Assembly (NCBI GenBank): GCA_963849505.1
Contig: CAWKHY010000003.1
Coordinates: 6,096-70,095 of the forward strand
DNA: 64,000 nt
Source: an uncultured Acidobacteriaceae bacterium
GTDB taxonomy: Bacteria > Acidobacteriota > Terriglobia > Terriglobales > Acidobacteriaceae
Direction of reading: 5' to 3'
Positions within the stretch are counted from its first letter, which is position 1, and each line of letters opens with the position of its first letter. Of this stretch, positions 5,799 to 59,577 are shown one piece after another. The notes below the pieces were generated by a model that saw only the letters and a list, made by a program, of their open reading frames with translations, made no database searches and was not told where the DNA came from. The position numbers were made by a program, and so were the translations under genes.

Positions 5799-6322
5799 AG
5801 CGATTTACTCCTGTTGTCACCATGGACCCTCACTTGCTCAAATTCTGTGCTCTTTTGCTCTCATGGCTGACTGGCGCAAAGCCTGAACGCGTACGCGTCA
5901 GCATGGCATCTGGATTTGCTCGCAAAACCCACGGTGCGAACTCCGCCGTCCCCGCCGCACATTTAAAAAGACTTGCGAAACGTATGGGCCCAATGTGACA
6001 TCGAAATCCAGACACAATACGGGCACATTAAGCCTCTTAATTCTGCATTTCTGAGCCTGTTTTGCACCGTTTCGTTCCTACAGTCGAATACAACCCTCCT
6101 ATGGAGTATTGCCCTGTGCCTTTGCCTGGTCGCCCTCACGGCCTGGCTAGTTCCTGACGCCTAAGTCACACTTGTCCACCAATCTGTTGATTCGCCGGAC
6201 GGATCGCTGATCTGCACTTAAATCGCGGCTAATGGACGGGATTGGCCCCACTGGTCGCAGTCTCTTGCTGCGGCTGAACATGAATTTCAGCATGCCGTTC
6301 TGGCTTCCTGGCTCTGATGTCA

Positions 6323-43667: not shown

Positions 43668-44600
43668 TCAAAGCGTAAAGAGGCCATGCCAGATTGCAAA
43701 AAGGGAAGCGATCGCGACAATAACCCACAGGAGCAATCCCTGGAGCATGGGCCGGATACCGACCTGCTTGAGCACCTTGCGTGAGATTCCCGTACCGATG
43801 AGAAAAAGCGTAACTGACAGGCCAATTTTCCCAAGCCTGCTCAGCTCCACAAATACAGAGTGAAGCCGCGGCGCATAGGTGCTGAACACGGTGGCCGCGC
43901 AGAATAGCCCAATGAACCATGGCCATTGGATTCGGGCCGAGCTCTTTCGCATCGTGGCAAGAGTCAGGGTTACCGGCACGATCCACATAGCTCGCGCCAG
44001 CTTCACGGTTGTTCCTACCGCCAGTGCTGTGGGCCCGAATCGTTGAGAGGCGCCCACTACAGAACTTGTGTCGTGGATGGCGAGCGCTGCCCACAACCCA
44101 AACTGGGTCTGACTTAAGTGCAGCCACCACCCCACGAGGGGAAACAAGAACAAGGCAATGGAATTGAGGACAAACACGGTGCCGAGCGAGACCGTCATTT
44201 CTTCTTCGTCAGCGTTGAGTACAGGGCCGATGGCGGCGATCGCGCTGCCCCCGCAGATGGCTGTTCCCGCGCAGATCAGGAGAGACTGCACCTTTCCCAC
44301 GCGAAAGACACACCCCAGGGAAAGACCAATGACCATGGCAAAGGTGATACTCAGGGCGGTAAAGAGGAATCCGGAGCGCCCGACCTTGATTACCTGCTCG
44401 AGATTCATCCCAAATCCCAAGAGCACGACAGATGCCTGTAGCAGGAACTTCGATAGTTCTCTGCTGGCTACCTGAAAGGGATGGATGAACGTGAGTCCGT
44501 AAATGATACCCGCGCTGAGGGCGAGAGAGGAGACAGAATTCCGGCGGCCGCTAGAATGATACCAAAAAAGAACAATTTCTTGGACATGCATCTCTAGCAT
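43668..44600 (-). CDS. yeiH: YeiH/UPF0324 family putative sulfate exporter
   Basis: 310 aa polytopic membrane protein with a YeiH-like layout. It sits directly downstream of a YeiE-like LysR regulator. Confidence 0.65.
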   Translation of the reverse strand: MLEMHVQEIVLFWYHSSGRRNSVSSLALSAGIIYGLTFIHPFQVASRELSKFLLQASVVLLGFGMNLEQVIKVGRSGFLFTALSITFAMVIGLSLGCVFRVGKVQSLLICAGTAICGGSAIAAIGPVLNADEEEMTVSLGTVFVLNSIALFLFPLVGWWLHLSQTQFGLWAALAIHDTSSVVGASQRFGPTALAVGTTVKLARAMWIVPVTLTLATMRKSSARIQWPWFIGLFCAATVFSTYAPRLHSVFVELSRLGKIGLSVTLFLIGTGISRKVLKQVGIRPMLQGLLLWVIVAIASLFAIWHGLFTL

Positions 44601-44636
44601 GTGCTGGACCTCATCTTCGAGTCCAAGTCTTTGTTC

Positions 44637-45578
44637 TTATCGGCGATTTGTTTTTGTAATGACTTTCGGACTGTTCGCTTTCTGCATTCCCATCTGTTCA
44701 AGTGCGAATTGCCAGAAGATACCTATGATCCCAGAAGGTCTGGGACCCAGCGGGCGAACAAGCGTGAATTGTCTGCGCACATCAAGCCCCTTCACTTGGA
44801 TCTGCACGACGGTGCCAAGAATCAGCTCCTTGCGAACCGCCCAGTTGGAGACGAATCCTACACCCAGACCCGCCTCAACGGTTGAAACGATCGCCTCTGT
44901 CGAATCCAGTTCCATTTCAATTCGCAATTCACTCAGGGCCAGCCCGCTCGCCTGCAGAGCCTCTTCCACCACGCGTCGCGAGCCTGAACCATGTTCGCGC
45001 ATCAGCATAGGCAGATTCGCGAGATCCTTGAGAGAGATCATCGACGTTCCAGTCCACTCCTCGGAGGCAGGCGCAATCAAGACCATGGAATCTTCGAGGA
45101 AAGGCTCGAGATGGAGATCCTTTTTAAGCGCAGGACCTTCGATCATCCCCACGTCGATGCTCTCACTGGCCAGCCTGGCCACGATGTCTTCCGTGTTTCC
45201 GCTGACAACCGAAACCCTGACGTGTGGGTGTACTTCCTGAAACAACCCTAGCATCCTCGGCAGCACATATTGAGCAACGGTGGTAGAAGCCCCAAGACGC
45301 AACTCCCCCTGTGATTTGCCACTTAACTCTGCTAATGCCGCGCGTGTCTCTTGAGCCAGCCGGGAGCTCTTGTGGGCGAACTCCAATACGATGCGTCCCG
45401 CGTCCGTCAATTGAACGCGGTTTCCACCACGGTCAAACAGGCGAACCCCAAGTTCCTCTTCCAGAGCATGCACTTGCTGACTGACCGCTGGCTGGCTGAG
45501 GTGAAGGTGCTCGGAAGCCTTGCGAAAACTTGCCTGCTCGGCCACCGCGCGAAATACTGTGATTCTGAAATTCTCCAT
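44637..45578 (-). CDS. LysR family transcriptional regulator (YeiE/CysL-like)
   Basis: N-terminal HTH FRAVAEQASFRKASEHLHLSQPAVSQQVHALEEELGVRLFDR plus a substrate-binding domain. Confidence 0.85.
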   Translation of the reverse strand: MENFRITVFRAVAEQASFRKASEHLHLSQPAVSQQVHALEEELGVRLFDRGGNRVQLTDAGRIVLEFAHKSSRLAQETRAALAELSGKSQGELRLGASTTVAQYVLPRMLGLFQEVHPHVRVSVVSGNTEDIVARLASESIDVGMIEGPALKKDLHLEPFLEDSMVLIAPASEEWTGTSMISLKDLANLPMLMREHGSGSRRVVEEALQASGLALSELRIEMELDSTEAIVSTVEAGLGVGFVSNWAVRKELILGTVVQIQVKGLDVRRQFTLVRPLGPRPSGIIGIFWQFALEQMGMQKANSPKVITKTNRR

Positions 45579-45674: not shown

Positions 45675-47513
45675 TCATTGTGCGATGACGCCCTTGCCCT
45701 CTTCGATCGTAAAGATTCGGTCGATCGCGGGGAGGGAAACCTTCTCCTTCTGTCCGCTCGGCCAATGAATTTCAATCTCATCGACCGCCATAGAGTCTCC
45801 TAGTCCGAAGTGAACTCTAAAGTCGTTCGAGGACAGATAGCTTCCGCCGCTAAGGACATCGCCACGCTGGCGAATTCCGCCAGAGCTCAGGTAAACTGTG
45901 GCTCCCACTGCATCGCGAGGGCTCTTCAGTCCCCCAACAAGCTTAAGTTCCACCCAGTGGTGATGATCCTGGTTGACGTTGCGCAACAGGGCCGGAACCC
46001 CATCCATATTGCTGATCACCACATCGATCTTGCCATCATTAAACAGGTCGCCAAACGCGGCGCCTCTGCCAACGCTCACTACTGCGAGCCCAGTGCCCTC
46101 TACCGGCGGGACGACCTCGAACTTCCCATTCTTTAAATTGTGAAAGAGCAGCGGACGCTCCGCATAGGTGTATCCCCATTCCGGGAATTTATCCACTACC
46201 GGATAGACGTGTCCGTTTGCAATAAGGAGGTCTTTCCAACCATCGTTATCATAATCAAGGAATCCGTCTCCGAAACTGACGAAGGGGATACTTACAGTCG
46301 CAACGCCACTCTCCATGCTGACATCCGTGAAGCTGCCAGTTCCGTCGTTTTGGTAAACAACCTTGTAGTCATCGGAGAATGTGGTGTTCACAATATCCAT
46401 GTGCCCGTCGTTTTCGTAATCGCCGGCCGCGATCCCCATCGACGCGGTCTCATGGCCATCCGCTGCAACGGCATAGCCACCCTCGAGGCTTTGATCTTCG
46501 AAGGTACTGTCTCCCTTGTTTATGTAGAGGTAGTTTGGCGTCGAGTCGTTGGCTACTAACAGATCAGGTTTGCCGTCGTTGTTGACATCGACAAAGAGTG
46601 CCCCCAGGCCGTAGTAGCCATTATGATCGCCAACCCCGGCTTTCTCACTTACATCCGTGAAAGTCCCATCGCCATTGTTATGGAATAGATGATCGGGCTC
46701 ACCCGGTAGCCCACGCGGCCCACATAGAACTGTCTGGCCCCGAAACTGACAGGTACCCGATGCGGCGGAGCGTGCTTCTGGAAGTGGTGGATGCTCCACG
46801 TCATAGTGAACATATCCAGCTACGAAGAGGTCCAGACGCCCATCTCCGTCGTAATCGCCAAACGTGGCGGCAGTGGACCAGTTGCCAAGTGTGACCCCAG
46901 CCTTTTCTGCGACATCCGTAAAGGTGCCATTGTGATTGTTGTGGTACAGGCGATTCTTTCCATAGTTGGAGACGAATATATCGGGCCAGCCATCATTGTC
47001 ATAGTCTCCCACCACCACGCCATAGCCCCATCTGTCGTTTGTCACGCCCGCCTTTGCGGCAACATCTGTGAATGTGCCGTCGTGATTGTTGTGAAACAGC
47101 GCGGAGTGTGGCGGTTCTGCTTTGCCGTTGAGCGCATCGTACGTCGTTCCATTCACGAAATAGATATCGAGCCAGCCATCGTTGTCGTAGTCCAGTAGCG
47201 CAACTCCTGGTCCTTTCGCTTCCAGGATGAAGCGTTTGTTCTTGCTTCCGCCAATGTGCTGCCAGCGAGTGAGGCCGGCTTGCTCGGCTATATTCTGGAA
47301 GACCACTGGACCAGTCTTGACAAAGCCTCCGGCAGTAATCGGCCTGTGTTGACGATCCATCTGTGCGGCATGAGATTCTCCAGTCGCCATGCCCGGAGAC
47401 GTCGAAGCCTGCATTGGAACTGGCGTCGTACCTGTGGAAGGATTTTGAGAGTATGCGCAAGCGGAAGCGAGCAGCACAAGTAACGCAAGATGATTGACAA
47501 CGATGGGACGCAT
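45675..47513 (-). CDS. CRTAC1-family protein (FG-GAP/VCBS repeats + ASPIC/UnbV C-terminal domain), secreted
   Basis: Repeated FHNNxDGTFTDV..KAGV and DYDNDGWxDI units. The C-terminal GGSYLSSNDFRVHFGLG is an UnbV_ASPIC signature. The start at 47513 or 47531 gives a signal peptide; the ORF opens at 47648. Confidence 0.85.
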   Translation of the reverse strand: MRPIVVNHLALLVLLASACAYSQNPSTGTTPVPMQASTSPGMATGESHAAQMDRQHRPITAGGFVKTGPVVFQNIAEQAGLTRWQHIGGSKNKRFILEAKGPGVALLDYDNDGWLDIYFVNGTTYDALNGKAEPPHSALFHNNHDGTFTDVAAKAGVTNDRWGYGVVVGDYDNDGWPDIFVSNYGKNRLYHNNHNGTFTDVAEKAGVTLGNWSTAATFGDYDGDGRLDLFVAGYVHYDVEHPPLPEARSAASGTCQFRGQTVLCGPRGLPGEPDHLFHNNGDGTFTDVSEKAGVGDHNGYYGLGALFVDVNNDGKPDLLVANDSTPNYLYINKGDSTFEDQSLEGGYAVAADGHETASMGIAAGDYENDGHMDIVNTTFSDDYKVVYQNDGTGSFTDVSMESGVATVSIPFVSFGDGFLDYDNDGWKDLLIANGHVYPVVDKFPEWGYTYAERPLLFHNLKNGKFEVVPPVEGTGLAVVSVGRGAAFGDLFNDGKIDVVISNMDGVPALLRNVNQDHHHWVELKLVGGLKSPRDAVGATVYLSSGGIRQRGDVLSGGSYLSSNDFRVHFGLGDSMAVDEIEIHWPSGQKEKVSLPAIDRIFTIEEGKGVIAQ

Positions 47514-47681
47514 CGATACCACACTCGGCATGGAGTTGTTAATTAGGCGATCGTCACAAAGGTACGCCCTTATGCCCACAACTACATCCATCGAGAGATG
47601 TACCCTGCAATTAAAATTGGAAGGTTGAGGGTGCTTGTGATCTAGCACACACCACCTATCCTTTTGTACTCGATCGCCCGG

Positions 47682-48431
47682 TCACTGCAGGAGCAGTTTC
47701 TCCGGCGTATTCAATTCGATTGAAATTTCCGGTTGCGAGGTGAGGGTGTTGTGAACAATGCACTGATGCACGGAGCGCATCATCGCCAGTCTCTGTTCTT
47801 CTGTGAGCGGCACCGGACAATCCACTTGAACGCGAAAATCTCCCATTCTTGCTGGCTGCTTGAGTTTAACGGCAGTGACTGAAACGTCTACGCCCGACTC
47901 TGAGAGATTGCGCGTTTTCAGATATTGTGTGGCGTAGTAAGCCGCACAGGAACCAAGAGAAGCGAGCAGCAATTCAGGTGGCGTGAATCCAGTATCCTGT
48001 CCGCTGTTGTCGGTGGGTTGATCGCTGATGATAGAGTGTTCACGGGCCTGAATTGAAAACCTTACATTATCAAGATGACTTACTTTTACTTTCATGTTCA
48101 TCCCCACTTCTTTCTGGTCACGATGTCTGGTCTCCAGAAGCGTGAGCTGCTCCTGGGGAGCACGGGAGTCATCGAGTTCAATTGAGTCAGAAACCATCGA
48201 AAGACAAATTGGCGTCACTTTTCGCAACCAATCGTCGAACTCTTTGGGTTTCTCCATGGTGCCGGCCGCGTTCCATGCACTCACCAGGGCACGGCACAGG
48301 GATAAGCCGGCGCCCTCTTTGCCTGCTTCCAGCCGCAGCATCGAACGGTACATTTCGTCCTGCAGACCATTCATGGTCAGTCGAATGGGCCGTCGATGCG
48401 GAGTTCTTTCGGAACGCTTGGGTATCTCCAT
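47682..48431 (-). CDS. OsmC-family protein with an unrecognised ~110-aa N-terminal extension
   Basis: The C-terminal 139 aa (from MNMKVKVSHL at 48101) has an OsmC/Ohr fold (TPPELLLASLGSCAAYYA, HQCIVHNTL). The reading frame stays open to 48431, only 3 nt after the upstream gene's stop in an otherwise gap-free operon. Confidence 0.65.
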   Translation of the reverse strand: MEIPKRSERTPHRRPIRLTMNGLQDEMYRSMLRLEAGKEGAGLSLCRALVSAWNAAGTMEKPKEFDDWLRKVTPICLSMVSDSIELDDSRAPQEQLTLLETRHRDQKEVGMNMKVKVSHLDNVRFSIQAREHSIISDQPTDNSGQDTGFTPPELLLASLGSCAAYYATQYLKTRNLSESGVDVSVTAVKLKQPARMGDFRVQVDCPVPLTEEQRLAMMRSVHQCIVHNTLTSQPEISIELNTPEKLLLQ

Positions 48432-48434
48432 GCC

Positions 48435-49037
48435 TCAGGACACCGATCTGCCCGCTACATTCGCAAGTACGAGGTAGGAAAATGGCCCAATCTCGACGGT
48501 CGAGCGCACTTGGAATCCCGCCGCAGCGAGCGCCTTCCCAACACTCTCCTTTGTAAGACGATGCTCGAGAGGTGGTCCAGGTGGCTGTTGTACATCGGGT
48601 CGCCAATCCAGGATCGCAATTCGGCCTCGCTCCTTGAGGATCCGAGACATCTCGGTGAGTACCGCCGGGATGTCTTCCAGTTCGTGCCAGATGTTTGCCA
48701 GGAGTGCCAAGTCACAACTCTCAGGGGAAAGCCCGGTTGCGGATGCCTCCCCAACCTTGCACTCGACATTTGCAATCCCGGACGCAGCCAACTTGACTCG
48801 AAGATGCGAGAGCATCTCGGGTTCAGCATCGACAGCGAATACTTTGCCCATAGTGCCAACAGCGTCGGCCATGGGCAGAGCGAAATATCCCGTGCCCGCG
48901 CCCACGTCTGCAACCGACCATCCACGATGAAGTTCCAGAGCGCTTAGCACCGCGTCGACTGGCAGCCATGTTTTGCGCTCGGGAGCATCGAGCCTGTGGG
49001 CCTGAGAGGGAGAAAACCTGCGATCGTTCATCGTCAT
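48435..49037 (-). CDS. Class I SAM-dependent methyltransferase
   Basis: Motif I is VADVGAGTGYFALPMA, with post-I VFAVDAEPEML. Confidence 0.8.
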   Translation of the reverse strand: MTMNDRRFSPSQAHRLDAPERKTWLPVDAVLSALELHRGWSVADVGAGTGYFALPMADAVGTMGKVFAVDAEPEMLSHLRVKLAASGIANVECKVGEASATGLSPESCDLALLANIWHELEDIPAVLTEMSRILKERGRIAILDWRPDVQQPPGPPLEHRLTKESVGKALAAAGFQVRSTVEIGPFSYLVLANVAGRSVS

Positions 49038-49040
49038 CCT

Positions 49041-49250
49041 TCAGCGAGTGGATTTAGCAGCGTTGTCTTTCAGACCCATGGCGCGGAAGATCGCCATGGC
49101 GGGGCACCAGTTGGTGAACGCTGACTGAAGCAGGTTGAGTCCCACGAACGCCGTCAGAAAATACCAGTACGGCGATACATAATGACCAAGAGCAACGGAT
49201 ATGAGGATGATGACACCAGCCATCATGCGGACTGCACGTTCAACGGTCAT
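49041..49250 (-). CDS. DUF2892 (YgaP-like) small membrane protein, second copy
   Basis: 69 aa with [10 protein letters not shown]...NWCPAMAIF. Its start overlaps the RND stop (49247-49250). Confidence 0.8.
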
Positions 49251-52200
49251 AGGTTCTCCTTGTTAGTTAAGACTTTCTCCGGTACATCGCACAACGGAGT
49301 TTCGCACTCGGCGATGTTTTCGGGCGAGTGAATGTGATCGCCCATCCCTGTCTCTGGCATCCGACTGTGGATCATGTAGTAGAGGACGGGAATGGTCGGC
49401 CAGGAGAGCAGCGTCGAAGCCACTGCACCTGCTATCAATGACAGCGCGAGACCCTGAAAGATCGGGTCTGGCAAAATTACGCTTGCCCCCACCACTACTG
49501 CGGCGGCGGTCAGTAGCATGGGCCGGAAGCGAACGGTGCCTGCGTCAATGACGGCATCGGCCAGCGGCACGCCATGCGCGCGGCGAAGTTCGATAAAGTC
49601 CACCAGGATGATTGAGTTGCGAACGATGATGCCTGCTCCGGCGATGAAGCCGATCATGGATGTGGCTGTGAAGAATGCGCCCATCATCGCGTGCGCCGGC
49701 AAAATGCCCACCAGCGTAAGCGGAATAGGCGCCATGATAACCATTGGCACGACGAAGGAGCGGAACCATCCAACTACCAGAACATAGATCAGAACGAGCA
49801 CTGCCGCGAAAGCCAGGCCGAGATCTCGAAACACCTCCAGCGTGATCTGCCACTCGCCGTCCCACTTCATTGCAAAGTGATCGGTCGATTCCGGCTGAAT
49901 GGAGTTGTACCGCGCGAGCGTGTAGCCGGCTGGAAGTTGCAGATGATCCAAAGCACTATTCATTCTGAAGATCGCATAAACGGGACTTTCTTCTGCGCCG
50001 GAGACATCTCCGGTTACATAAACCACCGGCCGCATATTCTTGCGGTAGATGCTCGGTTCCAGGACGCCATGCTCCACCTGGGTCAGTTCGAGCAACGAGA
50101 TCAAACTGCCATCAGCGCCGTTCAGTTTGATTCCCTCCAAAGCTTCTAAGGAAGATCGGTCCGTGCGCTCCATTTGTACCGCGACCGGAATTGCCTCGCG
50201 GGACGTTTCATCGTGTACCAGGCCGGCTTCCGCGCCGGACTCGGCGATCGTCAGTGCGCGAGCGACGTCTGCGACTGCGATGCCATGAAGTGCCGCTTTC
50301 GTCTCATCTACCTTGAAAGTGACTTTTGGTTGAGCGTCTTCCACATACCAGTCCACGTCGACCACGCCTGGAGTTTCCTGGAAAACCTTCTTCACTTGGC
50401 GTGCGACGTTCAACTGGCCGGAGGGATCGGGCCCATAAATCTCGGCTACGAGAGTCTGGATCACTGGGGGACCCGGGGGCACCTCACTCACCTTGATGCG
50501 AGCGCCAAAAGGCAATCCCAGCTTTACGAGTTCCGGTCTCATTCGCTTTGCAATCTCATGGCTCTGAGCGCTGCGCTCTTTGATGGGAAGAAGATTTACC
50601 TGGATATCAGCCTGATTTGGCTGATGGCGAAGATAGTAATGGCGAACCAGTCCATTGAAGTTGTACGGGCCAGACAGGCCGGCGTAGACCTGGTAGTTCG
50701 CAACTTCTGGCTGTCGTGCGAGATAACGTCCAAGCAATTGCGAGACCTGCGCAGTCTGTTCGAGCGTGGTCCCATCCGGCATATCGACAATCACCTGGAA
50801 CTCGCTCTTGTTATCGAATGGCAGCATCTTCACGCGCACGAGTTTCAGCGGGACCAGCGCACATGCAAGCAGGAAGAGAACGACGACTCCGGCAAGAAAG
50901 AGCAGCCGATTGCGATGAGACTGGATCAGCGGCGTCATGATTCGCTTGTAGAGACTCGCAGTCGACCCCCCTTCAGAGGAGTGCTTCTTGTGCTTCTCGG
51001 AGGTATGCGCCAGCAGATGCATTGCGGCCCAGGGCGACACCACGAAGGCGACGATAAGCGAGAACACCATGGCGGAAGAGGCGCCAACGGGAATGGGGCG
51101 CATGTAAGGCCCCATCAGTCCACGCACAAATGCCATGGGCAGGATTGCGGCGATGACGCCAATGGTTGCAAGGATGGTTGGATTGCCCACTTCCGCGACG
51201 GATTCAATGGCCACTTCATTCAGCGGCCGTCCATGATTCTCTGGCAGACGGAAATGCCGCACCATGTTCTCGACTACCACGATGGCGTCGTCCACGAGGA
51301 TGCCGATACTGAAGATCAGCGCAAACAAGGTGACGCGATTCAGCGTGTAACCGTAAAGGTAGAAGACCGCCAAGGTGAGAGCCAGCGTTACGGGAATGGC
51401 CAGCAGAACCACCCCAGACTCTCTCCATCCGAGGAAGAGCGCGATCAGCAGCGTGACTGAGAGCGTGGCGAGCAGCAGGTGCTCGAGCAATTCATCAGAT
51501 TTCGCCTTGGCTGTTTCACCATAGTTGCGCGTCGTCGTGATGTTCACGTCCCCCGGGAGCGTGGTCTTGCGCATCTCCGTAATGCGTTCCAGGACAGCAT
51601 TCGCGATATCGGTCGCGTTCGTTCCCTTGCGCTTTGCAACCGTAATGGTGACGGCAGGATACTCGGCTCCAACTGGATTGTTGGTTTGCGCGCTTCCCGC
51701 ACCGGTCCCAAAAACAACATAATCGGTGGGATCTGCCGGACCATCGACGATTTCCGAAGCAACGTTTCGAAGATAGACGGGACGCCCATGATCAACTGCA
51801 ACAACTACTTCTCCTACGTCTTCTTTAGTACGCAGGAAGTCGCCAGCGTCAACTCGGATCTGTTGGTTGTTAGCAGCGTATTCGCCCGCCTGCACAAGCG
51901 CATTTGCAGCCTGTAATCGCCCAACAACCGTGCTCGGTGAAATGGAGTAGGAAGCCAGGCGGTCCTTGTCGAGCACTACGCGCATCGCTCGGGGCTGTCC
52001 TCCTAGGATGCGCGTCTCCGAGACATCGTCGACCTGCTTGATACTGTGATTCAACTCTGCTGCGATCGAGCGCAGTTGGTAGGAAGAATAGTTTTTCCCC
52101 CATAGAGTCAAAGAGAGAATGGGAACGTCGTCGATGGACCGGGCCTTGATCATGGGTTGCGATGCACCCTGAGGAATGCGGTCCATATTCGAATAAAGCT

Positions 52201-52552
52201 TGCTGTAGACCTTGATCAGCGCGTCTTCTTGACTTGTCCCAACCAGGAAGCGCGCAATGACAAGGCTCGATCCCGGGGCGGATGTTGAATACACAAATTC
52301 AACTCCAGGAATTTCGCGCAGGAGCGTCTCGATTGGAATCGTGATGCGCTGCTCCACCTCGCTAGGGGATGCACCTGGCATCGCGGTCATCACATCGAGC
52401 ATCGGTACCACGATTTGCGGCTCTTCTTCGCGAGGGATCACCATCACCGCAAATGCTCCCAGGGCAAGGGAAGCGACGATGAACAAGGGTGTCAGCTTGG
52501 AGCTGATGAAGGTCGCTGCGATCCGGCCGGCGATGCCGAGGTGCTGCTTCAC
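49247..52552 (-). CDS. RND efflux transporter permease (AcrB/CzcA superfamily)
   Basis: 1101 aa with 12 TM helices plus two large periplasmic loops and typical N-terminal [18 protein letters not shown]. Confidence 0.9.
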
Positions 52553-53664
52553 TGGCGCACCTCGATCTTCTTGCCGCCTAGCTCACGATCGCCAGGGGAC
52601 AGCACAATTGTTTCGCCTGCGTTGAGCCCCGAAAGAACTTCCACACTGGTGTCGTGTTTCGTGCCAACAGTGATGTAGCGCAAAGATGCAATATGATTTC
52701 CGTCAACAATCCATAAGCTGTTCAAAGAGCCATGACTCACCACCGCTGCCAGTGGAACCAGAAGTGCAGCGTGGTTCCCTGTCTCGATGCTGGCGGTGCC
52801 GAACATGCCTGGGTGCAACCCCGTCATTCCGGACAGATCGATCTTCACCAGAAAACTATGGCTCGTCGGATCCGCAGCAGGAACTATCTCGGAAATATGT
52901 CCACTGAGCGGTTGCGGAGCCGCGGCGATCGTGACCATAAGCGTCATTCCACGATGCACCAAGGGAAGAAGCGATTCGTCGATCGTTGCCTGCAACTGCA
53001 GGGGGCCTGACTTATCTACTTCAAGCAACGGCATACCCGGTGTTGCCATGCTGCCCGGATCGGCGTGGCGAGCGGTCACGTAGCCCGCGAAGGGAGCATG
53101 CAGACGGGCATACCCCGCAACTGCACGCGCACTGTCCTCCGAGGCCTTCGCGGCCAGCATCATGGATTTGGCAGATTCCACGCGCGCCGCGGCAGACTGT
53201 GATCGACGCTGCACTTCGTCGAACTCCTGCGGGCTGACGCTCTTCTTTTCGCGAAGCACCTCGTAACGCGCCAGAGTTGATTTGGCTAATGCTGACTCGT
53301 TCTCGGCGCCTTTGACTTCGGCCTCGCTGCTTGCAACACTTGCGTGCGCGCGCTCAAGATCGGAAAGTGCTTGCGCTCCATCGAGAACAACCAAAAGCTG
53401 GCCAGCCTGTACCTGGTCGCCTTCCCGTACGAGCACCGAAGTTACTCGCCCCATCATTTGAGCCGAGAGTGAGGCCGACTCTCTCGCGTGCACTGTACCT
53501 GCGGCATCCAGCGTCTTTGGTACCTGCTTTTCCTCAACTTGAGCCACCGCTAGACCGGACACAATTGGAGGCTCGGTGGGACGTACATCCGTTTTGGAAC
53601 AGCCAGTCGCTGCGATCAGAAGTGAAGCGACAAGTATGGCAAGGTAATTTCGACGATCGTTCAT
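52549..53664 (-). CDS. RND periplasmic adaptor (membrane fusion protein)
   Basis: 371 aa with lipoprotein-like N-terminus [10 protein letters not shown], a coiled-coil hairpin and beta-barrel regions. It overlaps both neighbours by 4 nt. Confidence 0.85.
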
Positions 53665-55022
53665 TGAAGGTCCTCTACGCTGTCCGCAGTCAGCGTTCCG
53701 GTGGCGAATCTAAGGTTTGCGTAGGTCAACGTGTTCTGGAAGACAGCGTGCCAGTAGTTCACGCGGCTTTGCCGTTCTGCATCCTCGGCGCGCAAGGCCT
53801 CGGTTATCGTTGTCAGTCCGGCTTCATACCGGTCTTTCAGAATGCGCAGGCTCTCTTCTGTTTGCGCGGTGGAGGATCGGGAAGCGTCAAGCATCCTGCT
53901 CGCTGCCTGATGTTCGTAGTAGGCACGAGTCACCTCAAGCTGGATCTGCTGATCCGCAGAATCTGTAGCTGCCTGAATCCGGCGCTGCGCAATTTTTGCT
54001 GCGGCAAGATTGTCTCGTTTGCCCAACGGCAGAATGTCCAGCCTGAGCTCCGCTCCAGCAAGCCAGTTATTCCCACCCGCGCCGCCAATCGATGGCCTGT
54101 CAGTCTCCCAATTGCCGAACGCACTGATTTGCGGGCCGAAGGATGATTTGGCGGATTTCACCGCTGTATCACCGGCTTCCTTTGCCAGGCCGAGACTTTG
54201 CCTGTCTGCTCTGGTCTTGATCGCGAGCGCGACCGAATCGGCGAGTGGTGCTGGTTCGAACTTGCGCTCGGTTAGGGGCTGTAGTTGGCGTTGATCCCGG
54301 GGGATCGATTGCCCTATCGACGCCTCCAGTTCCGCCCAGGCGATCTCAACTCCTCCGGCTGCCGCAATCTGATCTTGTTGCCGCTCTGCAAGATTCGCCG
54401 TGGCCGTGAGTTTGTCGGAATCAACCGCTATTCCCGCCGCCACCCGGCTGTTACTCGATTCGAGAAGGGCCTTCGCAGTTTCCACTGCGTGGTCCGCCAC
54501 TTCTGCCTGGCGAATGGCAATGAGCACGGCTTCGTACGCTCCCACGACTCGATGGATGATCTCCTCGTCTGATTGTGCGGAGGCGGCAGAGGTGCTCTTT
54601 GCGAGTAGATCCGCCCTGTGAATCTCAAACTGAGTATGCCAGGAATCAAACGCCATCCAGTTGCCCGAGAAGCGAGTGACGAAGTTGTTGAGTGGTGTGG
54701 GGCGGTTCAGGCTGTCCAGCGAAAAATCCTTCGACTGGAAATTCTGTTGGCGAAGCAGTGAGCCGAACACGTACACGGGATCATTTCCGCGGGTTACCGA
54801 TTGGCCGAAATACAGATTTGGCAGTAGGGCGGTGCGCGCCAATTGAGAACCGATCTTCGCAGAGTCCACATCGGCTTGCGCGATCTGCCTGCTGGGGCTT
54901 TTTTCAAGGGACAACTTGACCGCTTGCCCCAACGAAAGCGGCACAGCCTGCTGCCCGGATGCTGCAGCCCAGGGGATGGCGATGAAGAAAAATGCGAGAT
55001 AAGCTCGCAGACGAATGCCCAT
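53661..55022 (-). CDS. TolC-family outer-membrane efflux protein
   Basis: 453 aa with a signal peptide and two TolC-type repeat halves. Confidence 0.85.
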   Translation of the reverse strand: MGIRLRAYLAFFFIAIPWAAASGQQAVPLSLGQAVKLSLEKSPSRQIAQADVDSAKIGSQLARTALLPNLYFGQSVTRGNDPVYVFGSLLRQQNFQSKDFSLDSLNRPTPLNNFVTRFSGNWMAFDSWHTQFEIHRADLLAKSTSAASAQSDEEIIHRVVGAYEAVLIAIRQAEVADHAVETAKALLESSNSRVAAGIAVDSDKLTATANLAERQQDQIAAAGGVEIAWAELEASIGQSIPRDQRQLQPLTERKFEPAPLADSVALAIKTRADRQSLGLAKEAGDTAVKSAKSSFGPQISAFGNWETDRPSIGGAGGNNWLAGAELRLDILPLGKRDNLAAAKIAQRRIQAATDSADQQIQLEVTRAYYEHQAASRMLDASRSSTAQTEESLRILKDRYEAGLTTITEALRAEDAERQSRVNYWHAVFQNTLTYANLRFATGTLTADSVEDLQ

Positions 55023-55117
55023 GTTTGCTTAGTGCCTTCCTTAAAAAGGACGCATTGGAATGTGCTCTCATTAGAAGAAAGACATGGAATCGGGAATTGT
55101 TACACTTTGGCGAAGTT

Positions 55118-56032
55118 TTATTTTGCGGACGGGATATCGAGCAGGCGAAGGTATTCGATCGTTAGCAGAGAACGCAGATGAGATGAGACGCTTGGATCAC
55201 ACTTCAGATCGAGCTTACGGCAGCGGTCGATAGCTTGACGCAGGTTGCGAATGAATGAGATACATGCAGGACAAGCTTCGATGTGCTGCCGCATCTCTTC
55301 GCAGGTCTGAGGTTCGACATTGCCATCCAAATACTCGGAAAGATTCTTGAACAGGTCGTGACACTCTGGCGCACGGCGTGAAGCGCCTGACCCCTTTCTC
55401 GCTTTCTTTCGTACTTCCTTCCGAATCTGCATCGTGTCTGGCAGTTCTCTGAGGAGCCGATTCATTTCCTTGCGAACACGAAGCCGGGCGCGATGGAGAC
55501 GAACCCTGACGGTTCCGGGCTGAATATCGAGAATCTGAGCAATCAGGTCCGGATCGAGGTCTTCCATATCGTGCAGCACCAGTACCATTCGGTATTGCGG
55601 AGGAACCCCGAGGATGGCCTTACGAACTAATTCTTCCTGTTCGTCGCTGAGCAAGCGACTTTCGGGACTTGGAGCAGAATCCTGCAAAAGAAGCGCCAAT
55701 TCGAAATCATCGGGCATCAACTCTTCGAGTGAAAGTGTTTCCTTGGGCGCGTCCGCCGTCCGTCGCCGCATGCGCCAGCAACGATTTCGCGTAGCCGTAT
55801 AGAGCCAGACCGCCAGCGCCTGGGGATCCTCGATTTTGACAAGGTGAGACAAGGAGCGCACGAGCACTTCCTGCGTCGTGTCTTCTGCGTCCTCCGTATG
55901 GCCACAAACCTTCATGCTGAAGGAATACACAGTGCCTTGAAGGAGCCTGATCGCTTCACTCACTGAATCAGGCTCTGCGCTACGCAACAACTTTGCTGCC
56001 TGAATGAGCTCGGGGCGCATGCAACATTCCAA
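55118..56032 (-). CDS. ECF sigma factor with C-terminally fused zinc-binding anti-sigma (ZAS, RsrA-like) domain
   Basis: Region 2 is EDTTQEVLVRSLSHL...WLYTATRNRCWRMRRR. Region 4 is VLVLHDMEDLDPDLIAQILDIQPGTVRVRLHRARLRV. A basic linker follows, then C-x27-H-x3-C-x2-C (ECHDLFKNLSEYLDG...MRQHIEACPAC). An alternative start lies at 56020. Confidence 0.8.
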   Translation of the reverse strand: MECCMRPELIQAAKLLRSAEPDSVSEAIRLLQGTVYSFSMKVCGHTEDAEDTTQEVLVRSLSHLVKIEDPQALAVWLYTATRNRCWRMRRRTADAPKETLSLEELMPDDFELALLLQDSAPSPESRLLSDEQEELVRKAILGVPPQYRMVLVLHDMEDLDPDLIAQILDIQPGTVRVRLHRARLRVRKEMNRLLRELPDTMQIRKEVRKKARKGSGASRRAPECHDLFKNLSEYLDGNVEPQTCEEMRQHIEACPACISFIRNLRQAIDRCRKLDLKCDPSVSSHLRSLLTIEYLRLLDIPSAK

Positions 56033-56480
56033 TCAAAGAGGAGTTTTTAGGAGCCGTTTATCCAGTATAACTGGCCTCCCGCTTCGAAACAGCGGACCGG
56101 ACTCCCACGGCTATGCGACAAAGGAACGGTCTCTGGAAAAATCAATCCCATCAATCCCATTCTATAAACCCGATGGAACGTTGCCTCGATTGCCAGGTCC
56201 ACGGATGCAGTTGTAATGGATCGCAATGGCTCCGAATTCGGCGCTTCGGGCATTATCGAAGACTATGACGCAAACAACGTTTTGATCTCTACCGGCTGCT
56301 TCACTCACCCAGCAAAACGGCTGAGTGATCCCGGACTCGGTGGGGAATAACGCGCTCGATAGCCCGCCGAAGGATGAAAGACTGTAGTCGCCTTGGTTCG
56401 ACTCGACATGAATGGAGCAGCGTACTTTGCTCCCATTCACTATTTCTCTAGCGCAGACATTCAGATTCGGGCCGCGTCAA

Positions 56481-57461
56481 CTAATTAGAATTCCTCAACG
56501 CTTCAGTCCTTGCCAACACCAGCCCTTTGTCACGTTCAGTGAGAGTCGCCCGAAGAAACTCAACCACCTCTTCAAACGTGGGAAGCGCGTCCCATCCACG
56601 GCGCTTTCCTCCACCAGCAATAGCCTTCAGAGCCGCCGCTGCCGAAGCAAACGTAACAGCATCCTCTACAGCAAGATTGCGCGCAACCGCCAAAGCGAAG
56701 GCTCCATGAAATGTATCTCCACATCCATTGGTATCGAAAGCCTCAACCTTGAAAGCAGGGAAGTGACGCACCGCAGCATTTGTTTGCGTTTTCACGTAGC
56801 AGCCTTCAACGCCGGCCGTCACAATGGTTGCCAACCGTTCCGTGCGTGCCAGAAATGCGCACGAATCGCGCGGATCCTCGGCGCCGCTGGCCCACGCAGC
56901 AAAGGCCCTCGGGACAATCAAATAATCCGACAGCCCCGCTAGAGTCAGAGAAGACTCTGTCTGGCCCTCAATATCTCCCAATATCGGCACGCCCAGTCTG
57001 TGCACCTTCTCCGCCAGCGGTGCCAAAGATGGCTCGGTGATGTGGTCGAGAAGAATCAGCGATGCGGATTGAATCAGCGAATCGGGTAGATCATCCGGGC
57101 CCACCAATCGATACAGTGCCGAATTGTAAAACACGTTGCGACGTCCCAATCCGTCCACCACAATGAAGCTGTGGTAGGGCCCACCCGCAGGATCCTGCAC
57201 GATGTGCGACACATCTACTCCGTGGCATTCAAGCGCGGATTTGATGAATGCGGAGAGTTCATTCTCTCCAAAGCGTGCTGTGTAGGCGGCCCGTGCCCCA
57301 AGCGAACCGGCCGCGGATATCGCGGTGCACGCTGGTCCCCCACCTTGGCGAGTGCTGCCGAATACCGGTATCTTGCAATCCACCGGCGGAAACTCCGAAA
57401 CGTAGCACAGATCGTCTACGGCCGCGATCCCCGCTCCGAGCACGTCATATCGCTTCTTCAT
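56481..57461 (-). CDS. PfkB-family sugar(-phosphate) kinase
   Basis: 326 aa with the C-terminal ribokinase-family motif DTNGCGDTFHGAFALAV. Confidence 0.85.
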   Translation of the reverse strand: MKKRYDVLGAGIAAVDDLCYVSEFPPVDCKIPVFGSTRQGGGPACTAISAAGSLGARAAYTARFGENELSAFIKSALECHGVDVSHIVQDPAGGPYHSFIVVDGLGRRNVFYNSALYRLVGPDDLPDSLIQSASLILLDHITEPSLAPLAEKVHRLGVPILGDIEGQTESSLTLAGLSDYLIVPRAFAAWASGAEDPRDSCAFLARTERLATIVTAGVEGCYVKTQTNAAVRHFPAFKVEAFDTNGCGDTFHGAFALAVARNLAVEDAVTFASAAAALKAIAGGGKRRGWDALPTFEEVVEFLRATLTERDKGLVLARTEALRNSN

Positions 57462-57499
57462 TCACGTCTTCCGCACGTCATGCTGCACCGATACTCATA

Positions 57500-58522
57500 T
57501 CAGTTCCCATAGTTCGCGAACACGGGAGTCAGCTCCAAATCGTTCGCGAGACTGCGGCGTGGCTTCAATTGCATCACCTCGAGCGCGGCGTGATACGCCT
57601 TCACCGCTTCCGCCGGTTTCATCTGATCATCCGCCACCAGCCGCAGGCAATGAACGAAAGATAGCTGGTCCTCAGCCGCGTTGATCTTTCTCCCAAACAG
57701 CGCGACGCGAGCCCCATACCGCTTTGCTTCGTAAACCAGCGAGAATGCATCGTGGGTTGTGCCTGCCGATCCGCCCAGCACCCCCACGATCAGCGACGAA
57801 TCATATCCGCACAGCTCTTCCATTGCCCTTGGACCACCGTAGGGAATTTTCAGGAAAAGCGGGCGCCCAGATGAGGGAACTCCCGCCAGAAGTCGCACGA
57901 TGTGGTCGTTCACAAAGTGCGGCACATCCTCCGGCGCGATACCATGCACGCTGGCAGGCACATTCGGATAGAACACCTCGAGAAAATGTCTGAACTTCTT
58001 TTCTTCAGCCTCAAGCCGAAACGCCTTGTACGCCTCAAGCGTGTTGAGATCGCGTTCCGGATCGTTGTTAAAGGTGATGGAATACAGCCCAAGATTCGCG
58101 CCCACACCCCGCTCAGCATCTGTACATGGATACTTCCCAGCTTGTATGTGCTCCAGCGTGGTGCTTGCAAATGGTTTCGACGGTGCCGAAGCATACTGGC
58201 TGCCGCGAACAATATGCACGTCGGTCGTATCGTTGGTGCGCACAGCCGGAGTCACGGAAGAAGAATCAAAAATCCGTTCTCGAATCGTCAGTATCTCCGA
58301 TGTGCTGGCTGACATCAGCGTAATATCCACCAGGCCCTGAGCCACCACCCCGCGAAGCTGCTCTCGAAATTCGCTCAGCGATCGCAGCCTTTCGTTGTGT
58401 GCCTTTCCTGGGCATGCGATGCCAAACGCCATATCGGCATCCTTCGCGTCCGCCAGAATGAACGCACGGGAAGTGGAGTCGTTCCTCAATGCTGCAAGTT
58501 TCACGTCAAGAGTCTTTTCCAT
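57500..58522 (-). CDS. Putative class-I-aldolase-like (beta/alpha)8 protein; function uncertain
   Basis: 340 aa. LFLKIPYGG resembles the Schiff-base lysine strand of LacD/YihT/DhnA-type aldolases. It is positioned between a kinase and a DeoR regulator. Confidence 0.4.
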   Translation of the reverse strand: MEKTLDVKLAALRNDSTSRAFILADAKDADMAFGIACPGKAHNERLRSLSEFREQLRGVVAQGLVDITLMSASTSEILTIRERIFDSSSVTPAVRTNDTTDVHIVRGSQYASAPSKPFASTTLEHIQAGKYPCTDAERGVGANLGLYSITFNNDPERDLNTLEAYKAFRLEAEEKKFRHFLEVFYPNVPASVHGIAPEDVPHFVNDHIVRLLAGVPSSGRPLFLKIPYGGPRAMEELCGYDSSLIVGVLGGSAGTTHDAFSLVYEAKRYGARVALFGRKINAAEDQLSFVHCLRLVADDQMKPAEAVKAYHAALEVMQLKPRRSLANDLELTPVFANYGN

Positions 58523-58587
58523 CTATCTCCCTAAGTTCTATGCAGAAGCTGCGAACCCTATGCGGGCACGCTGCAATCCTGCATTGT

Positions 58588-59376
58588 TCATTCCTCAGCC
58601 AACCGGTTCACGTCCACCACCACCACTTCCACACCGGCATCGCGAAGGCCCGCAATCTGCTCCGGATCAGTACCGGAATCGGTGATGATTGTCGTGAAGT
58701 CACTCACAGGCCCCACGCGAACAAATGCCTGCTTACCAAACTTCGTGTGATCCACCAATCCGATGCACTGCTTACCGGCCTCGACCAGCATCCTCTTCAC
58801 TTGGGCCTCAGCCTGGCTCGCGCAGGAATGTCCGTATCGGAAGTCGATCGCGGTGATACCGAGGATGGCCTTGTCGACCCTGATCTCAGCCAGCGCATGT
58901 TGCGCCCACAAGCCCGACAGATAGAACTGGTCCCGTTGCAGATCGCCACCCGTGCAAACAACGTTCACGCCCGCCCAGCGTTGCAACTGGCAAACGATCG
59001 GTGGGGAATTCGTCGCGACGGTCAGACGGCTCAGGCTGCCGAGGCGCCGCGACAACTCGAAAACCGTCGTGCTGCCCTCCAGAAACACGGTATCTCCGTC
59101 CATCAGCAGCGATTCTGCGGCGGTAGCGATAGCCACTTTCTCCGCCCGATTTTCCCGCTGCAGCACCTCATACGAAGGCTGAAAGTTCGTGCTGGATGTT
59201 CGCGAAACAGCGCCGCCATGCGAACGCACCAGCACCCCCTCTTTCTCCAGCGCTGCCAGGTCGCGTCGGATCGTTGCCGCCGTTGCGCCGAGAGCCTCGA
59301 TCAGGTCCGAAGCCGAGACACTCCTCTGCAGGGTGAGAATCTCGCGAATTCGGAACCGGCGTTCATCGGCAAGCAT
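58588..59376 (-). CDS. DeoR family transcriptional regulator
   Basis: From MLADERRFRIREIL the protein has an HTH (VSASDLIEALGATAATIRRDLAALEKEG) followed by a DeoR sugar-phosphate-binding C-terminal domain. The ORF opens at 59412. Confidence 0.85.
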   Translation of the reverse strand: MLADERRFRIREILTLQRSVSASDLIEALGATAATIRRDLAALEKEGVLVRSHGGAVSRTSSTNFQPSYEVLQRENRAEKVAIATAAESLLMDGDTVFLEGSTTVFELSRRLGSLSRLTVATNSPPIVCQLQRWAGVNVVCTGGDLQRDQFYLSGLWAQHALAEIRVDKAILGITAIDFRYGHSCASQAEAQVKRMLVEAGKQCIGLVDHTKFGKQAFVRVGPVSDFTTIITDSGTDPEQIAGLRDAGVEVVVVDVNRLAEE

Positions 59377-59577
59377 TTTTACAAAACTAGCTCCAGCGCT
59401 CCACAGTGTCAACTGATTTCGTGCAAATTACTCCAAAACAGATCACTTCCACTAGGAATACGCTCATATCCAATCAGCGTTTGAGCCTTCATGTCCCTCG
59501 GCGGCCTAGCCGACCTCGAGGTTAAGAACATTAATATGCGTAGTTTGTATGCACTTTCAGAACTCCAGCAAATATCC

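Follow-up and report, generated by a model that had tools for sequence, protein, structure and literature searches.

We analyzed a 64,000-nucleotide stretch of DNA (hereafter the window) from an uncultured Acidobacteriaceae bacterium (positions 6,096 to 70,095 of contig CAWKHY010000003.1, assembly GCA_963849505.1), in which a single gene on the minus strand (55118..56020) encodes an extracytoplasmic function (ECF) sigma factor fused to a soluble anti-sigma domain of the zinc-binding (ZAS) type. The fusion is genuine and conserved across the Terriglobales. In the reading that we favor, and that we regard as rather probable, this one soluble polypeptide is a constitutively made sigma factor that inhibits itself in cis and is freed by oxidation or alkylation of thiols, whereupon it would drive the promoter of an adjoining efflux/OsmC operon. 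Residue numbers given below refer to the 300-amino acid (aa) protein counted from the ATG at 56020 (MRPELIQ...). Pfam scores were judged against the gathering cutoffs, and NCBIfam scores against the cutoffs of NCBI.

Both parts of the protein are encoded in one continuous open reading frame (ORF; 55118..56032, minus strand), as a first-pass annotation made from the sequence alone had stated. Read from the TTG at 56032, as in the ORF list, the product has 304 aa. The ATG at 56020, four codons inside the TTG, is the likely start, because an identical database copy (300 aa, 100% identity) and all homologues begin there (MRPEL). The gene then comprises 300 codons and the stop codon at 55118-55120. 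Sigma region 2 (residues 25-88, 55757..55948) matches Sigma70_r2 with 37.3 bits (cutoff 24). Sigma region 4, the -35-binding domain (residues 130-181, 55478..55633), matches Sigma70_r4_2 with 49.2 bits (cutoff 25.7), and the two are about 40 residues apart. Both regions, which the annotation had called complete, score above their cutoffs. The NCBIfam model TIGR02937 (sigma70-ECF) is matched with 83.6 bits (cutoff 42.9), and a Pfam scan of the fusion protein finds neither Sigma70_r3 nor r1 at E-values up to 1. Having regions 2 and 4 above thresholds and lacking regions 1.1 and 3, the protein classifies by its sequence as an ECF (group IV) sigma-70 factor.

Region 4 is followed by a linker (residues about 193-217, 55370..55444) that is poorly conserved and probably disordered. 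It is basic, as had been noted: residues 187-219 contain 11 K/R against 4 D/E, and in 131 homologues the linker has 18-34 residues and a median net charge of +5. The alignment of 120 close homologues shows no conserved column in it, and in an AlphaFold model built on the 131 sequences the predicted local confidence (pLDDT) is below 50 over residues 195-216. The anti-sigma domain itself spans residues 218-293 (55142..55369) and matches zf-HC2 with 32.7 bits (cutoff 22.2, E 7.9e-8), so that the combination of Sigma70_r2, Sigma70_r4_2 and zf-HC2, which had been proposed as a check, is found with all three models above their gathering cutoffs. Its putative zinc ligands form a CHCC motif, C220 (55361-55363), H246 (55283-55285), C250 (55271-55273) and C253 (55262-55264), with the spacing C220-x25-H246-x3-C250-x2-C253. 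The first interval had been miscounted as x27; the actual spacing fits the class-I ZAS pattern H/C-x23-26-H-x3-C-x2-C. Three further conserved cysteines lie in the same domain (C240, 55301-55303; C267, 55220-55222; C274, 55199-55201), and two family-invariant ones in sigma region 2 (C39, 55904-55906; C81, 55778-55780). The protein ends 47 residues past the CxxC, which makes the C-terminal extension about 106 aa long. No transmembrane (TM) helix is predicted within residues 190-300, where the highest 19-residue Kyte-Doolittle mean is 0.65, and on this value we rejected a membrane anchor for the anti-sigma part. An internal restart that would yield a free anti-sigma protein was likewise rejected, as the homologues do not conserve the Met in the linker. 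Again as annotated, the fusion gene is not followed by a separate anti-sigma gene: the next gene, past a gap of 95 nt, encodes an outer-membrane efflux protein.

A protein search recovered 3672 homologues. In all of the top 120, which are about 300 aa long and 62-100% identical, r2, r4 and zf-HC2 are combined. When one genome per GTDB species was scanned, at least 531 relatives emerged. Of these, the top 80 all align over residues 1-300, and every one belongs to the Acidobacteriaceae/Terriglobales; among them are Granulicella, Terracidiphilus and the cultured strain Acidipila rosea DSM 103428. Finally, a profile of more distant fused members retrieved 7833 metagenome clusters, nearly all of them fused, including Candidatus Sulfotelmatobacter. 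A stop codon or frameshift between the two parts, and a lack of conservation of the Cys/His residues, had been named beforehand as observations that would speak against the fusion. Neither is seen: the frame is open here and in the 80 independent genomes, and the ligands are invariant in both alignments. In the 120 close homologues eight cysteines (C39, C81, C220, C240, C250, C253, C267 and C274) and H246 are invariant. In the 131 sequences, which are more diverse (35-86% identity), this holds for C39, C81, C220, H246, C250 and C253, while C240 and C267 are at least 90% conserved.

What kind of anti-sigma domain is it? When the C-terminal domain is searched alone, its best NCBIfam match is TIGR03988 antisig_RsrA (mycothiol system anti-sigma-R factor; E 9e-9). 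A profile built from 83 relatives matches solved anti-sigma domains, with RsiW (5WUQ, 2.9e-9) ahead of RsrA (5FRF, 1e-7) and further matches to DdvA, RslA and ChrR. The sigma half is closest to SigW (E 3.4e-17). Since RsiW is the top match for the anti-sigma profile, SigW/RsiW is the nearest solved pair. Only the profile search is informative here; the top match of a single-sequence PDB search with the C-terminal domain, a plant resistance protein, is spurious. In the alignment to 5FRF the cysteine pattern C-x19-C-x5-H-x3-C-x2-C reproduces C11, C31, H37, C41 and C44 of RsrA (PMC4960319). In RsrA, it is the Cys as first ligand (CHCC, not HHCC) that allows oxidation to part the protein from SigR (PMC4960319). 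The corresponding residue of the window protein, C220, is a Cys in every one of the 131 sequences. AlphaFold predicts helices at residues 218-231, 238-249, 251-269 and 276-293 with moderate confidence. By these comparisons the domain has the class-I anti-sigma four-helix fold and is homologous to the solved anti-sigma domains, its zinc binding being putative. The earlier label "RsrA-type" holds as far as the best NCBIfam match and the cysteine spacing, including the equivalent of C31, are concerned. It does not extend to the equivalog cutoff of the RsrA model (35.3 vs 62.5 bits), and judged by sequence the domain resembles RsrA but is not an RsrA equivalog.

The C-terminal domain also occurs by itself. 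With the C-terminal 106 aa as query, 508 matches were obtained among 1.8 billion representative proteins. The best 150 comprise about 26 fused proteins or fragments thereof and about 105 stand-alone small proteins of 76-135 aa with the same cysteines, an approximate count, since some are gene fragments. A profile of this stand-alone set retrieves proteins of 85-112 aa that are annotated as anti-sigma or zf-HC2, several of them from Bryobacteraceae. On three long contigs a small ZAS gene with its own ribosome-binding site begins 2-12 nt after the gene of an ECF sigma factor of 172-198 aa, so that these unfused relatives have a 90-aa ZAS protein at position +1. Their sigma factors share the cysteine pair of region 2 (MCGQ...NACLM in loci L088 and L089) and are 30% identical to the sigma half of the window protein, including the unusual inter-domain motif AP-x3-LSL-E/D-E-x-x-P. 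Moreover, the unfused loci also hold OsmC and a divergent OEP-MFP-RND operon, for an efflux pump of the resistance-nodulation-division (RND) type. The contigs in question (L087, L088, L089 and L090, from the ENA ERZ250395xx series) show many fragmented gene calls, as is typical of uncorrected long-read assemblies; their RND permeases are broken into 3-4 pieces, and in L090 the sigma gene can be read only by combining three frames. The split between sigma and ZAS in L088 and L089 is nevertheless real, because a stop codon, a ribosome-binding site and an ATG are present and because there are hundreds of independent stand-alone ZAS clusters. Since unfused sigma/small-ZAS pairs with the same cysteines adjoin the same target genes in other Acidobacteriota, the Terriglobales protein is the product of a gene fusion, in which a sigma/soluble-ZAS pair that existed before was joined and retained its target genes.

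Fused Terriglobales proteins and unfused two-gene relatives alike conserve the extra cysteines outside the CHCC motif. C39 and C81 of sigma region 2 might join C240 and C267 (in the close family also C274) in a second metal site, between the domains, or in a disulfide relay, and so clamp region 2 directly to the anti-sigma domain. The switch would then have two sites, with sensing thiols contributed by the sigma factor itself. We know of no characterized sigma/anti-sigma pair with a switch of this kind, and we put this idea forward as a speculative one with a low chance of being right.

We then turned to the genes that the sigma factor may control. Downstream of it, all on the minus strand, lie the genes of an outer-membrane efflux protein of the TolC/OEP family (OMF; 53661..55022; Pfam OEP 126.8 bits), which is the first gene of the predicted target operon, an RND periplasmic adaptor (MFP; 52549..53664; TIGR01730 RND_mfp 208 bits, above cutoff, and Pfam HlyD_D23) and an RND inner-membrane permease (49247..52552; Pfam ACR_tran 518.7 bits). 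These are followed by a small YgaP-like (DUF2892) membrane protein (49041..49250), whose homologues in loci L002, L003 and L085 were called PF11127 YgaP-like_TM, and by an S-adenosylmethionine (SAM)-dependent methyltransferase (48435..49037) with weak ArsM/UbiE-like NCBIfam matches (arsenite methyltransferase with 59.9 bits, and UbiE/MenG; none reaches its cutoff). The last gene of the operon encodes a peroxiredoxin-like protein with OsmC-domain matches (47682..48431). We compared these proteins with 84 related loci by tblastn. In about 70 of them the sigma gene adjoins OsmC, OMF-MFP-RND-YgaP (the methyltransferase being present or absent), or both. OMF is linked to it in most of the 84 loci, OsmC follows it directly in 52, the YgaP-like gene is kept after the RND gene in nearly all loci and the methyltransferase gene is present in about half. 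The same genes are associated with fused relatives of 43% identity. Thus, the linkage between the sigma factor and the efflux/OsmC genes is strong, but it is not universal. A minority of orthologues lack this neighborhood (L001/L005, with an orthologue of 78% identity, L006 and L086); in L001 the sigma gene is followed by that of a 435-aa protein without a family, and in L086 by an IS110 transposase.

A conserved promoter-like motif accompanies these genes. Its form is tTGTAACGaAt-(16 nt from GTAAC)-G[T/A/G]CTTTaTTc, with the core TGTAAC-N16-G[T/A]CTTT, and it is present upstream of OMF in 64 of 64 loci and between the sigma stop codon and OsmC in 52 of 52 (46 strict, 6 near-matches). Such a form, with 'AAC' in the -35 element, 'GTC' in the -10 element and a spacer of 16 nt, is what ECF promoters typically show. 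In 1.45 Mb of loci the strict pattern has 116 sites, nearly all at these two positions, against about 11 in shuffled sequence. The window contains a single strict match, GTAAC-N15-GTCTTT (55078..55103, minus strand), which starts 15 nt past the stop codon of the sigma gene, precedes the OMF start by about 55 nt and is the predicted target promoter. With a position weight matrix this site scores 27.4, compared to 6.3 for the next best site of the window and a maximum of 13.1 in shuffles. In the distant or unfused loci L085-L090 the strict pattern has no match; relaxed inspection reveals TGTAAC-type -35 boxes in L085 and L087 and nothing convincing in the unfused loci. The commoner gene order is [promoter]-OMF-MFP-RND-YgaP-(methyltransferase)-u102-sigma-[promoter]-OsmC-(LysR-YeiH), u102 being an ORF of 102 aa, whereas the window, Acidipila and Acidisarcina have sigma-[promoter]-OMF-MFP-RND-YgaP-methyltransferase-OsmC. 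In both orders the sigma gene and the predicted target promoter stay adjacent, and the sigma gene seems to have been relocated together with the promoter 15-18 nt past its stop codon.

Upstream of the sigma gene itself we found no ECF-type motif. Instead, a sigma70-like -10 box is predicted there from its conservation across species (TATACT, 56064..56069, minus strand): TATA[CA]T occurs in 74 of 82 orthologous regions, mostly exactly 26 nt before the ATG, and 43 nt before it in the window. The 82 loci show no conserved -35 element at this place, and a generic promoter scan gave no full sigma70 -35/-10 pair. The sigma gene is thus apparently not autoregulated. Judging from linkage and conservation, the fusion protein would be made from a housekeeping-type promoter and controlled post-translationally, and the sigma factor would drive the efflux/OsmC promoter.

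Taken together, these results suggest the following mechanism. The fusion protein would be made constitutively. In its reduced, zinc-loaded state the anti-sigma helices would bend back onto regions 2 and 4 in cis, barring the sigma factor from core RNA polymerase. Thiol-reactive stress, caused by oxidants, organic peroxides or electrophiles, would attack the zinc-thiolate site and expel the zinc, and a C220-C250/C253 disulfide or an adduct would form, as in RsrA. The anti-sigma domain would then collapse and release the sigma factor, which would transcribe the genes of the efflux pump and the OsmC-family peroxidase-like protein until cellular thiol reductants reset the switch. We favor such an RsrA-type switch in cis because the domain is homologous to inhibitory anti-sigma domains and has an invariant Cys as its first ligand, because the unfused relatives show the classical +1 anti-sigma layout and the sigma gene is apparently not autoregulated, and because the linked genes are antioxidant or detoxification genes in character. 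A regulon responding to oxidants or electrophiles would fit, since OsmC is a protein of the thiol-peroxidase family. The "one-component redox switch" proposed in the first-pass annotation is therefore a reasonable inference from the CHCC motif with its invariant first Cys, the OsmC/efflux regulon and the non-autoregulated sigma gene.

A number of points weigh against this reading. We infer zinc binding, docking in cis, inhibition and the redox response alike, and not all CHCC/ZAS domains are redox sensors. The match to TIGR03988 that falls short of its cutoff covers profile positions 1-37 of 77. AlphaFold2 with the 120 closest homologues reached a pLDDT of 64.6 and a predicted TM-score (pTM) of 0.38, with the C-terminal domain below 50. 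The more diverse alignment of 131 sequences gave a pLDDT of 71.7, with region 4 above 80, and a pTM of 0.35. Both models, which are of moderate confidence, leave the arrangement of the domains undefined (pTM 0.35-0.38), and in a Foldseek search the 131-sequence model matches chains of ECF sigma factors only. Among these matches the rmsd is 14-15 Å to anti-sigma-bound forms compared to about 24 Å to holoenzyme forms, at a TM-score of only about 0.24, which may be a weak hint of a compact sigma conformation. Moreover, the assignment of the promoter to this sigma factor draws on linkage and on its ECF-like form. The weakly ArsM-like methyltransferase, a nearby LysR regulator matching a "selenium-metabolism" model and the YeiH protein might instead speak for a signal from metalloids or sulfur, and a review lists fused ECF270 members, a group to which we return below, under "proteolysis", though without data (PMC8999054).

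Two of these points correspond to alternative explanations of how the sigma factor is released. The Cys-rich domain, possibly together with the cysteines of sigma region 2, might bind a thiophilic metal or metalloid, such as As(III), Cd, Cu, Hg or selenite/tellurite, so that zinc is displaced, the sigma factor is freed and an operon for detoxification by export or methylation is induced. The protein would then be functionally analogous to CorE/CorE2 or to CnrH-controlled efflux. The eight invariant cysteines of the close family would suit such a metal(loid) sensor, as would the operon order OMF-MFP-RND, which resembles czcCBA, the methyltransferase, whose best (weak) match is an arsenite methyltransferase, and the neighboring LysR, which passes the selenium model (251 vs 250 bits), with YeiH as a putative sulfate exporter. 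However, the RND permease scores far better with the multidrug RND model (438 bits) than with CusA/CzcA (284 bits), both below the NCBIfam cutoffs, and it has an AcrB-like DD motif in TM4. On these scores we rejected a heavy-metal (HME) assignment of the pump. The matches of the methyltransferase, in turn, lie far below cutoffs and its gene is missing from about half of the loci, the linked OsmC points to peroxide or electrophile chemistry and the domain is a bona fide anti-sigma domain rather than a short Cys-rich tail of the CorE type. We thus consider sensing of metal(loid)s unlikely.

Alternatively, the zinc site might be purely structural and a cytoplasmic protease (Clp/Lon) might remove the tethered domain in response to some signal. 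This would agree with the listing of ECF270* under "proteolysis" (PMC8999054) and with the long disordered basic linker, which would offer an accessible cleavage site, and the turnover of ChrR is a precedent for a soluble ZAS protein. The listing comes without data, however, and no protease gene is conserved in the neighborhood. Neither the C-terminal residues nor the linker are conserved, which leaves no sign of a conserved degron or cleavage motif, and a purely structural site would leave the invariant Cys at the first ligand position unexplained. Activation by proteolysis therefore seems quite unlikely to us.

A third explanation denies the C-terminal domain its role as an inhibitor in cis: it might be a required positive or partner-binding module, or inhibit in trans within dimers. 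C-terminal extensions of ECF41/42 do have both positive and negative roles (PMC8999054), and docking in cis cannot be verified from the models. The homology to anti-sigma domains known for sequestering sigma factors, and the unfused relatives, in which small proteins encoded right after the sigma factor form a classical sigma/anti-sigma layout, make this improbable. Finally, that a missed stop codon or a frameshift had merged a normal two-gene pair, versions of which do exist in other lineages, has a negligible probability and was rejected, since at least 80 genomes, drawn from many independent projects and among them that of the cultured strain Acidipila rosea DSM 103428, keep the same continuous frame, thousands of metagenome clusters are fused as well and the linker of about 25-30 residues of the fused form is missing from the two-gene form.

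The redox switch in cis that we favor can be compared with characterized systems. It shares with SigR-RsrA and SigH-RshA (ECF12) the motif C-x25-H-x3-C-x2-C, the redox-critical first Cys and a soluble domain, and C240 occupies the position of RsrA C31. RsrA is also the best NCBIfam match and the second-best PDB match of the C-terminal domain. The ECF12 proteins are separate and act in trans, whereas sigma and anti-sigma parts are here in one chain. The organism does not belong to the actinobacteria and lacks a mycothiol context, its sigma gene apparently does not regulate itself, and the score lies below the RsrA equivalog cutoff. The predicted regulon, an efflux pump and OsmC, also differs from the thioredoxin/mycothiol genes of ECF12. 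SigW-RsiW of Bacillus subtilis (PDB 5WUQ/5WUR) provides the closest solved structures for both halves. RsiW, however, is a membrane protein released by regulated intramembrane proteolysis, whereas the domain described here lacks a TM segment and is joined covalently to its sigma factor. ECF48, ECF52 and ECF53 of Actinobacteria and IutY (ECF243) likewise carry a sigma factor and an anti-sigma-like zinc-finger module in one polypeptide. Apart from ECF48s2, these proteins possess TM helices as well as long extensions outside the cytoplasm, and proteolysis is believed to activate them, in contrast to the short, cytoplasmic protein of Acidobacteriota. CorE/CorE2 (ECF238, formerly ECF44) are regulated in cis by a Cys-rich C-terminal extension without an anti-sigma partner and have cysteines in the sigma core. 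Their extension of about 20-40 aa is not an anti-sigma domain and binds metal directly, whereas the extension here is a predicted four-helix ZAS domain of 106 aa.

The closest resemblance in architecture is to ECF270. In the group description of ECF classification 2.0 (Casas-Pastor et al., 2021), ECF270 consists of sigma factors of the ECF type accompanied by a soluble ZAS anti-sigma factor at +1, which is fused in subgroup ECF270s2, and is marked by a Cys pair in sigma region 2. The same description covers members from Deltaproteobacteria, Planctomycetes, Ignavibacteriae and Nitrospirae and states neither a conserved context nor a conserved promoter. A 2022 review (PMC8999054) counts ECF270 among the groups of unknown mechanism and cites one member from Acidobacteria. 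The window protein matches both descriptive traits, the fused soluble ZAS and the Cys pair of sigma region 2, and its unfused relatives have the soluble ZAS at +1; we liken it to the group by these described traits only. Unlike the group as described, the fused proteins analyzed here form a very large Terriglobales clade with a conserved efflux/OsmC neighborhood and a conserved promoter. The comparison with published ECF groups, which the first-pass annotation had called for, thus places the protein beside a known group and at the same time shows that the architecture is already catalogued: soluble-ZAS fusions are in ECF270s2, and zinc-finger extensions that are soluble, without TM helices, in ECF48s2 (Casas-Pastor et al., 2021). 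The novelty implied by that annotation was overstated. Our literature search found no experimental work on ECF270, which beyond the classification is mentioned in one review only, and no literature on sigma/efflux/OsmC systems of Acidobacteria.

Some features of the surroundings are also of note. The OsmC ORF of the window has 249 aa, and its N-terminal part of about 110 aa is homologous to the separate 102-aa ORF (L003:7586-7894; 42% over 67 aa), which has no Pfam family, contains a conserved C-P-x-C-L-like patch and lies just upstream of the sigma gene in most other loci. In the window either the 102-aa-type part and OsmC are fused, or OsmC starts at an internal Met near residue 111-113. A LysR regulator (43668-45578, minus strand) barely passes the "selenium metabolism-associated LysR" model (251 vs 250 bits). 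LysR and a YeiH-family putative sulfate exporter recur right after OsmC in many related loci, which hints at a sulfur/selenium link of the whole cluster. Between the OsmC and LysR genes the window encodes a secreted 657-aa protein with FG-GAP/VCBS-like repeats (45675-47648, minus strand). This protein has no Pfam or NCBIfam match at the thresholds used, and homologues are found in a few related loci (L044, L065 and L078). Upstream of the sigma gene, across a gap of 460 nt, lies an apparently unrelated sugar-catabolism cluster (56481-59412, minus strand) with a DeoR regulator, a 340-aa protein without a Pfam family and a PfkB kinase; in other genomes the context on this side differs.

In summary, what is new here is the size of the fused clade and its taxonomic home in the Terriglobales, its two-gene relatives, a predicted target operon conserved together with its promoter, a sigma gene that is apparently not autoregulated and the co-conserved extra cysteines in both halves of the protein. 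The system is of value mainly as a candidate one-component sigma factor for thiol sensing that is clean and amenable to experiment. If our reading is correct, sensor, inhibitor and transcription factor would be combined in one soluble protein of 300 residues with a single well-defined target promoter, which would also make it a compact, orthogonal redox-responsive part for synthetic biology. Because fused and unfused forms would control the same genes, they would constitute a natural experiment on what covalent tethering does to stoichiometry, noise and reset kinetics and on its relation to the absent autoregulation. Finally, control of an RND efflux pump and an OsmC-type peroxidase would be the first function assigned to the uncharacterized ECF270-type systems, whose fused form is widespread in the Terriglobales, which are dominant in acidic soils and peatlands.

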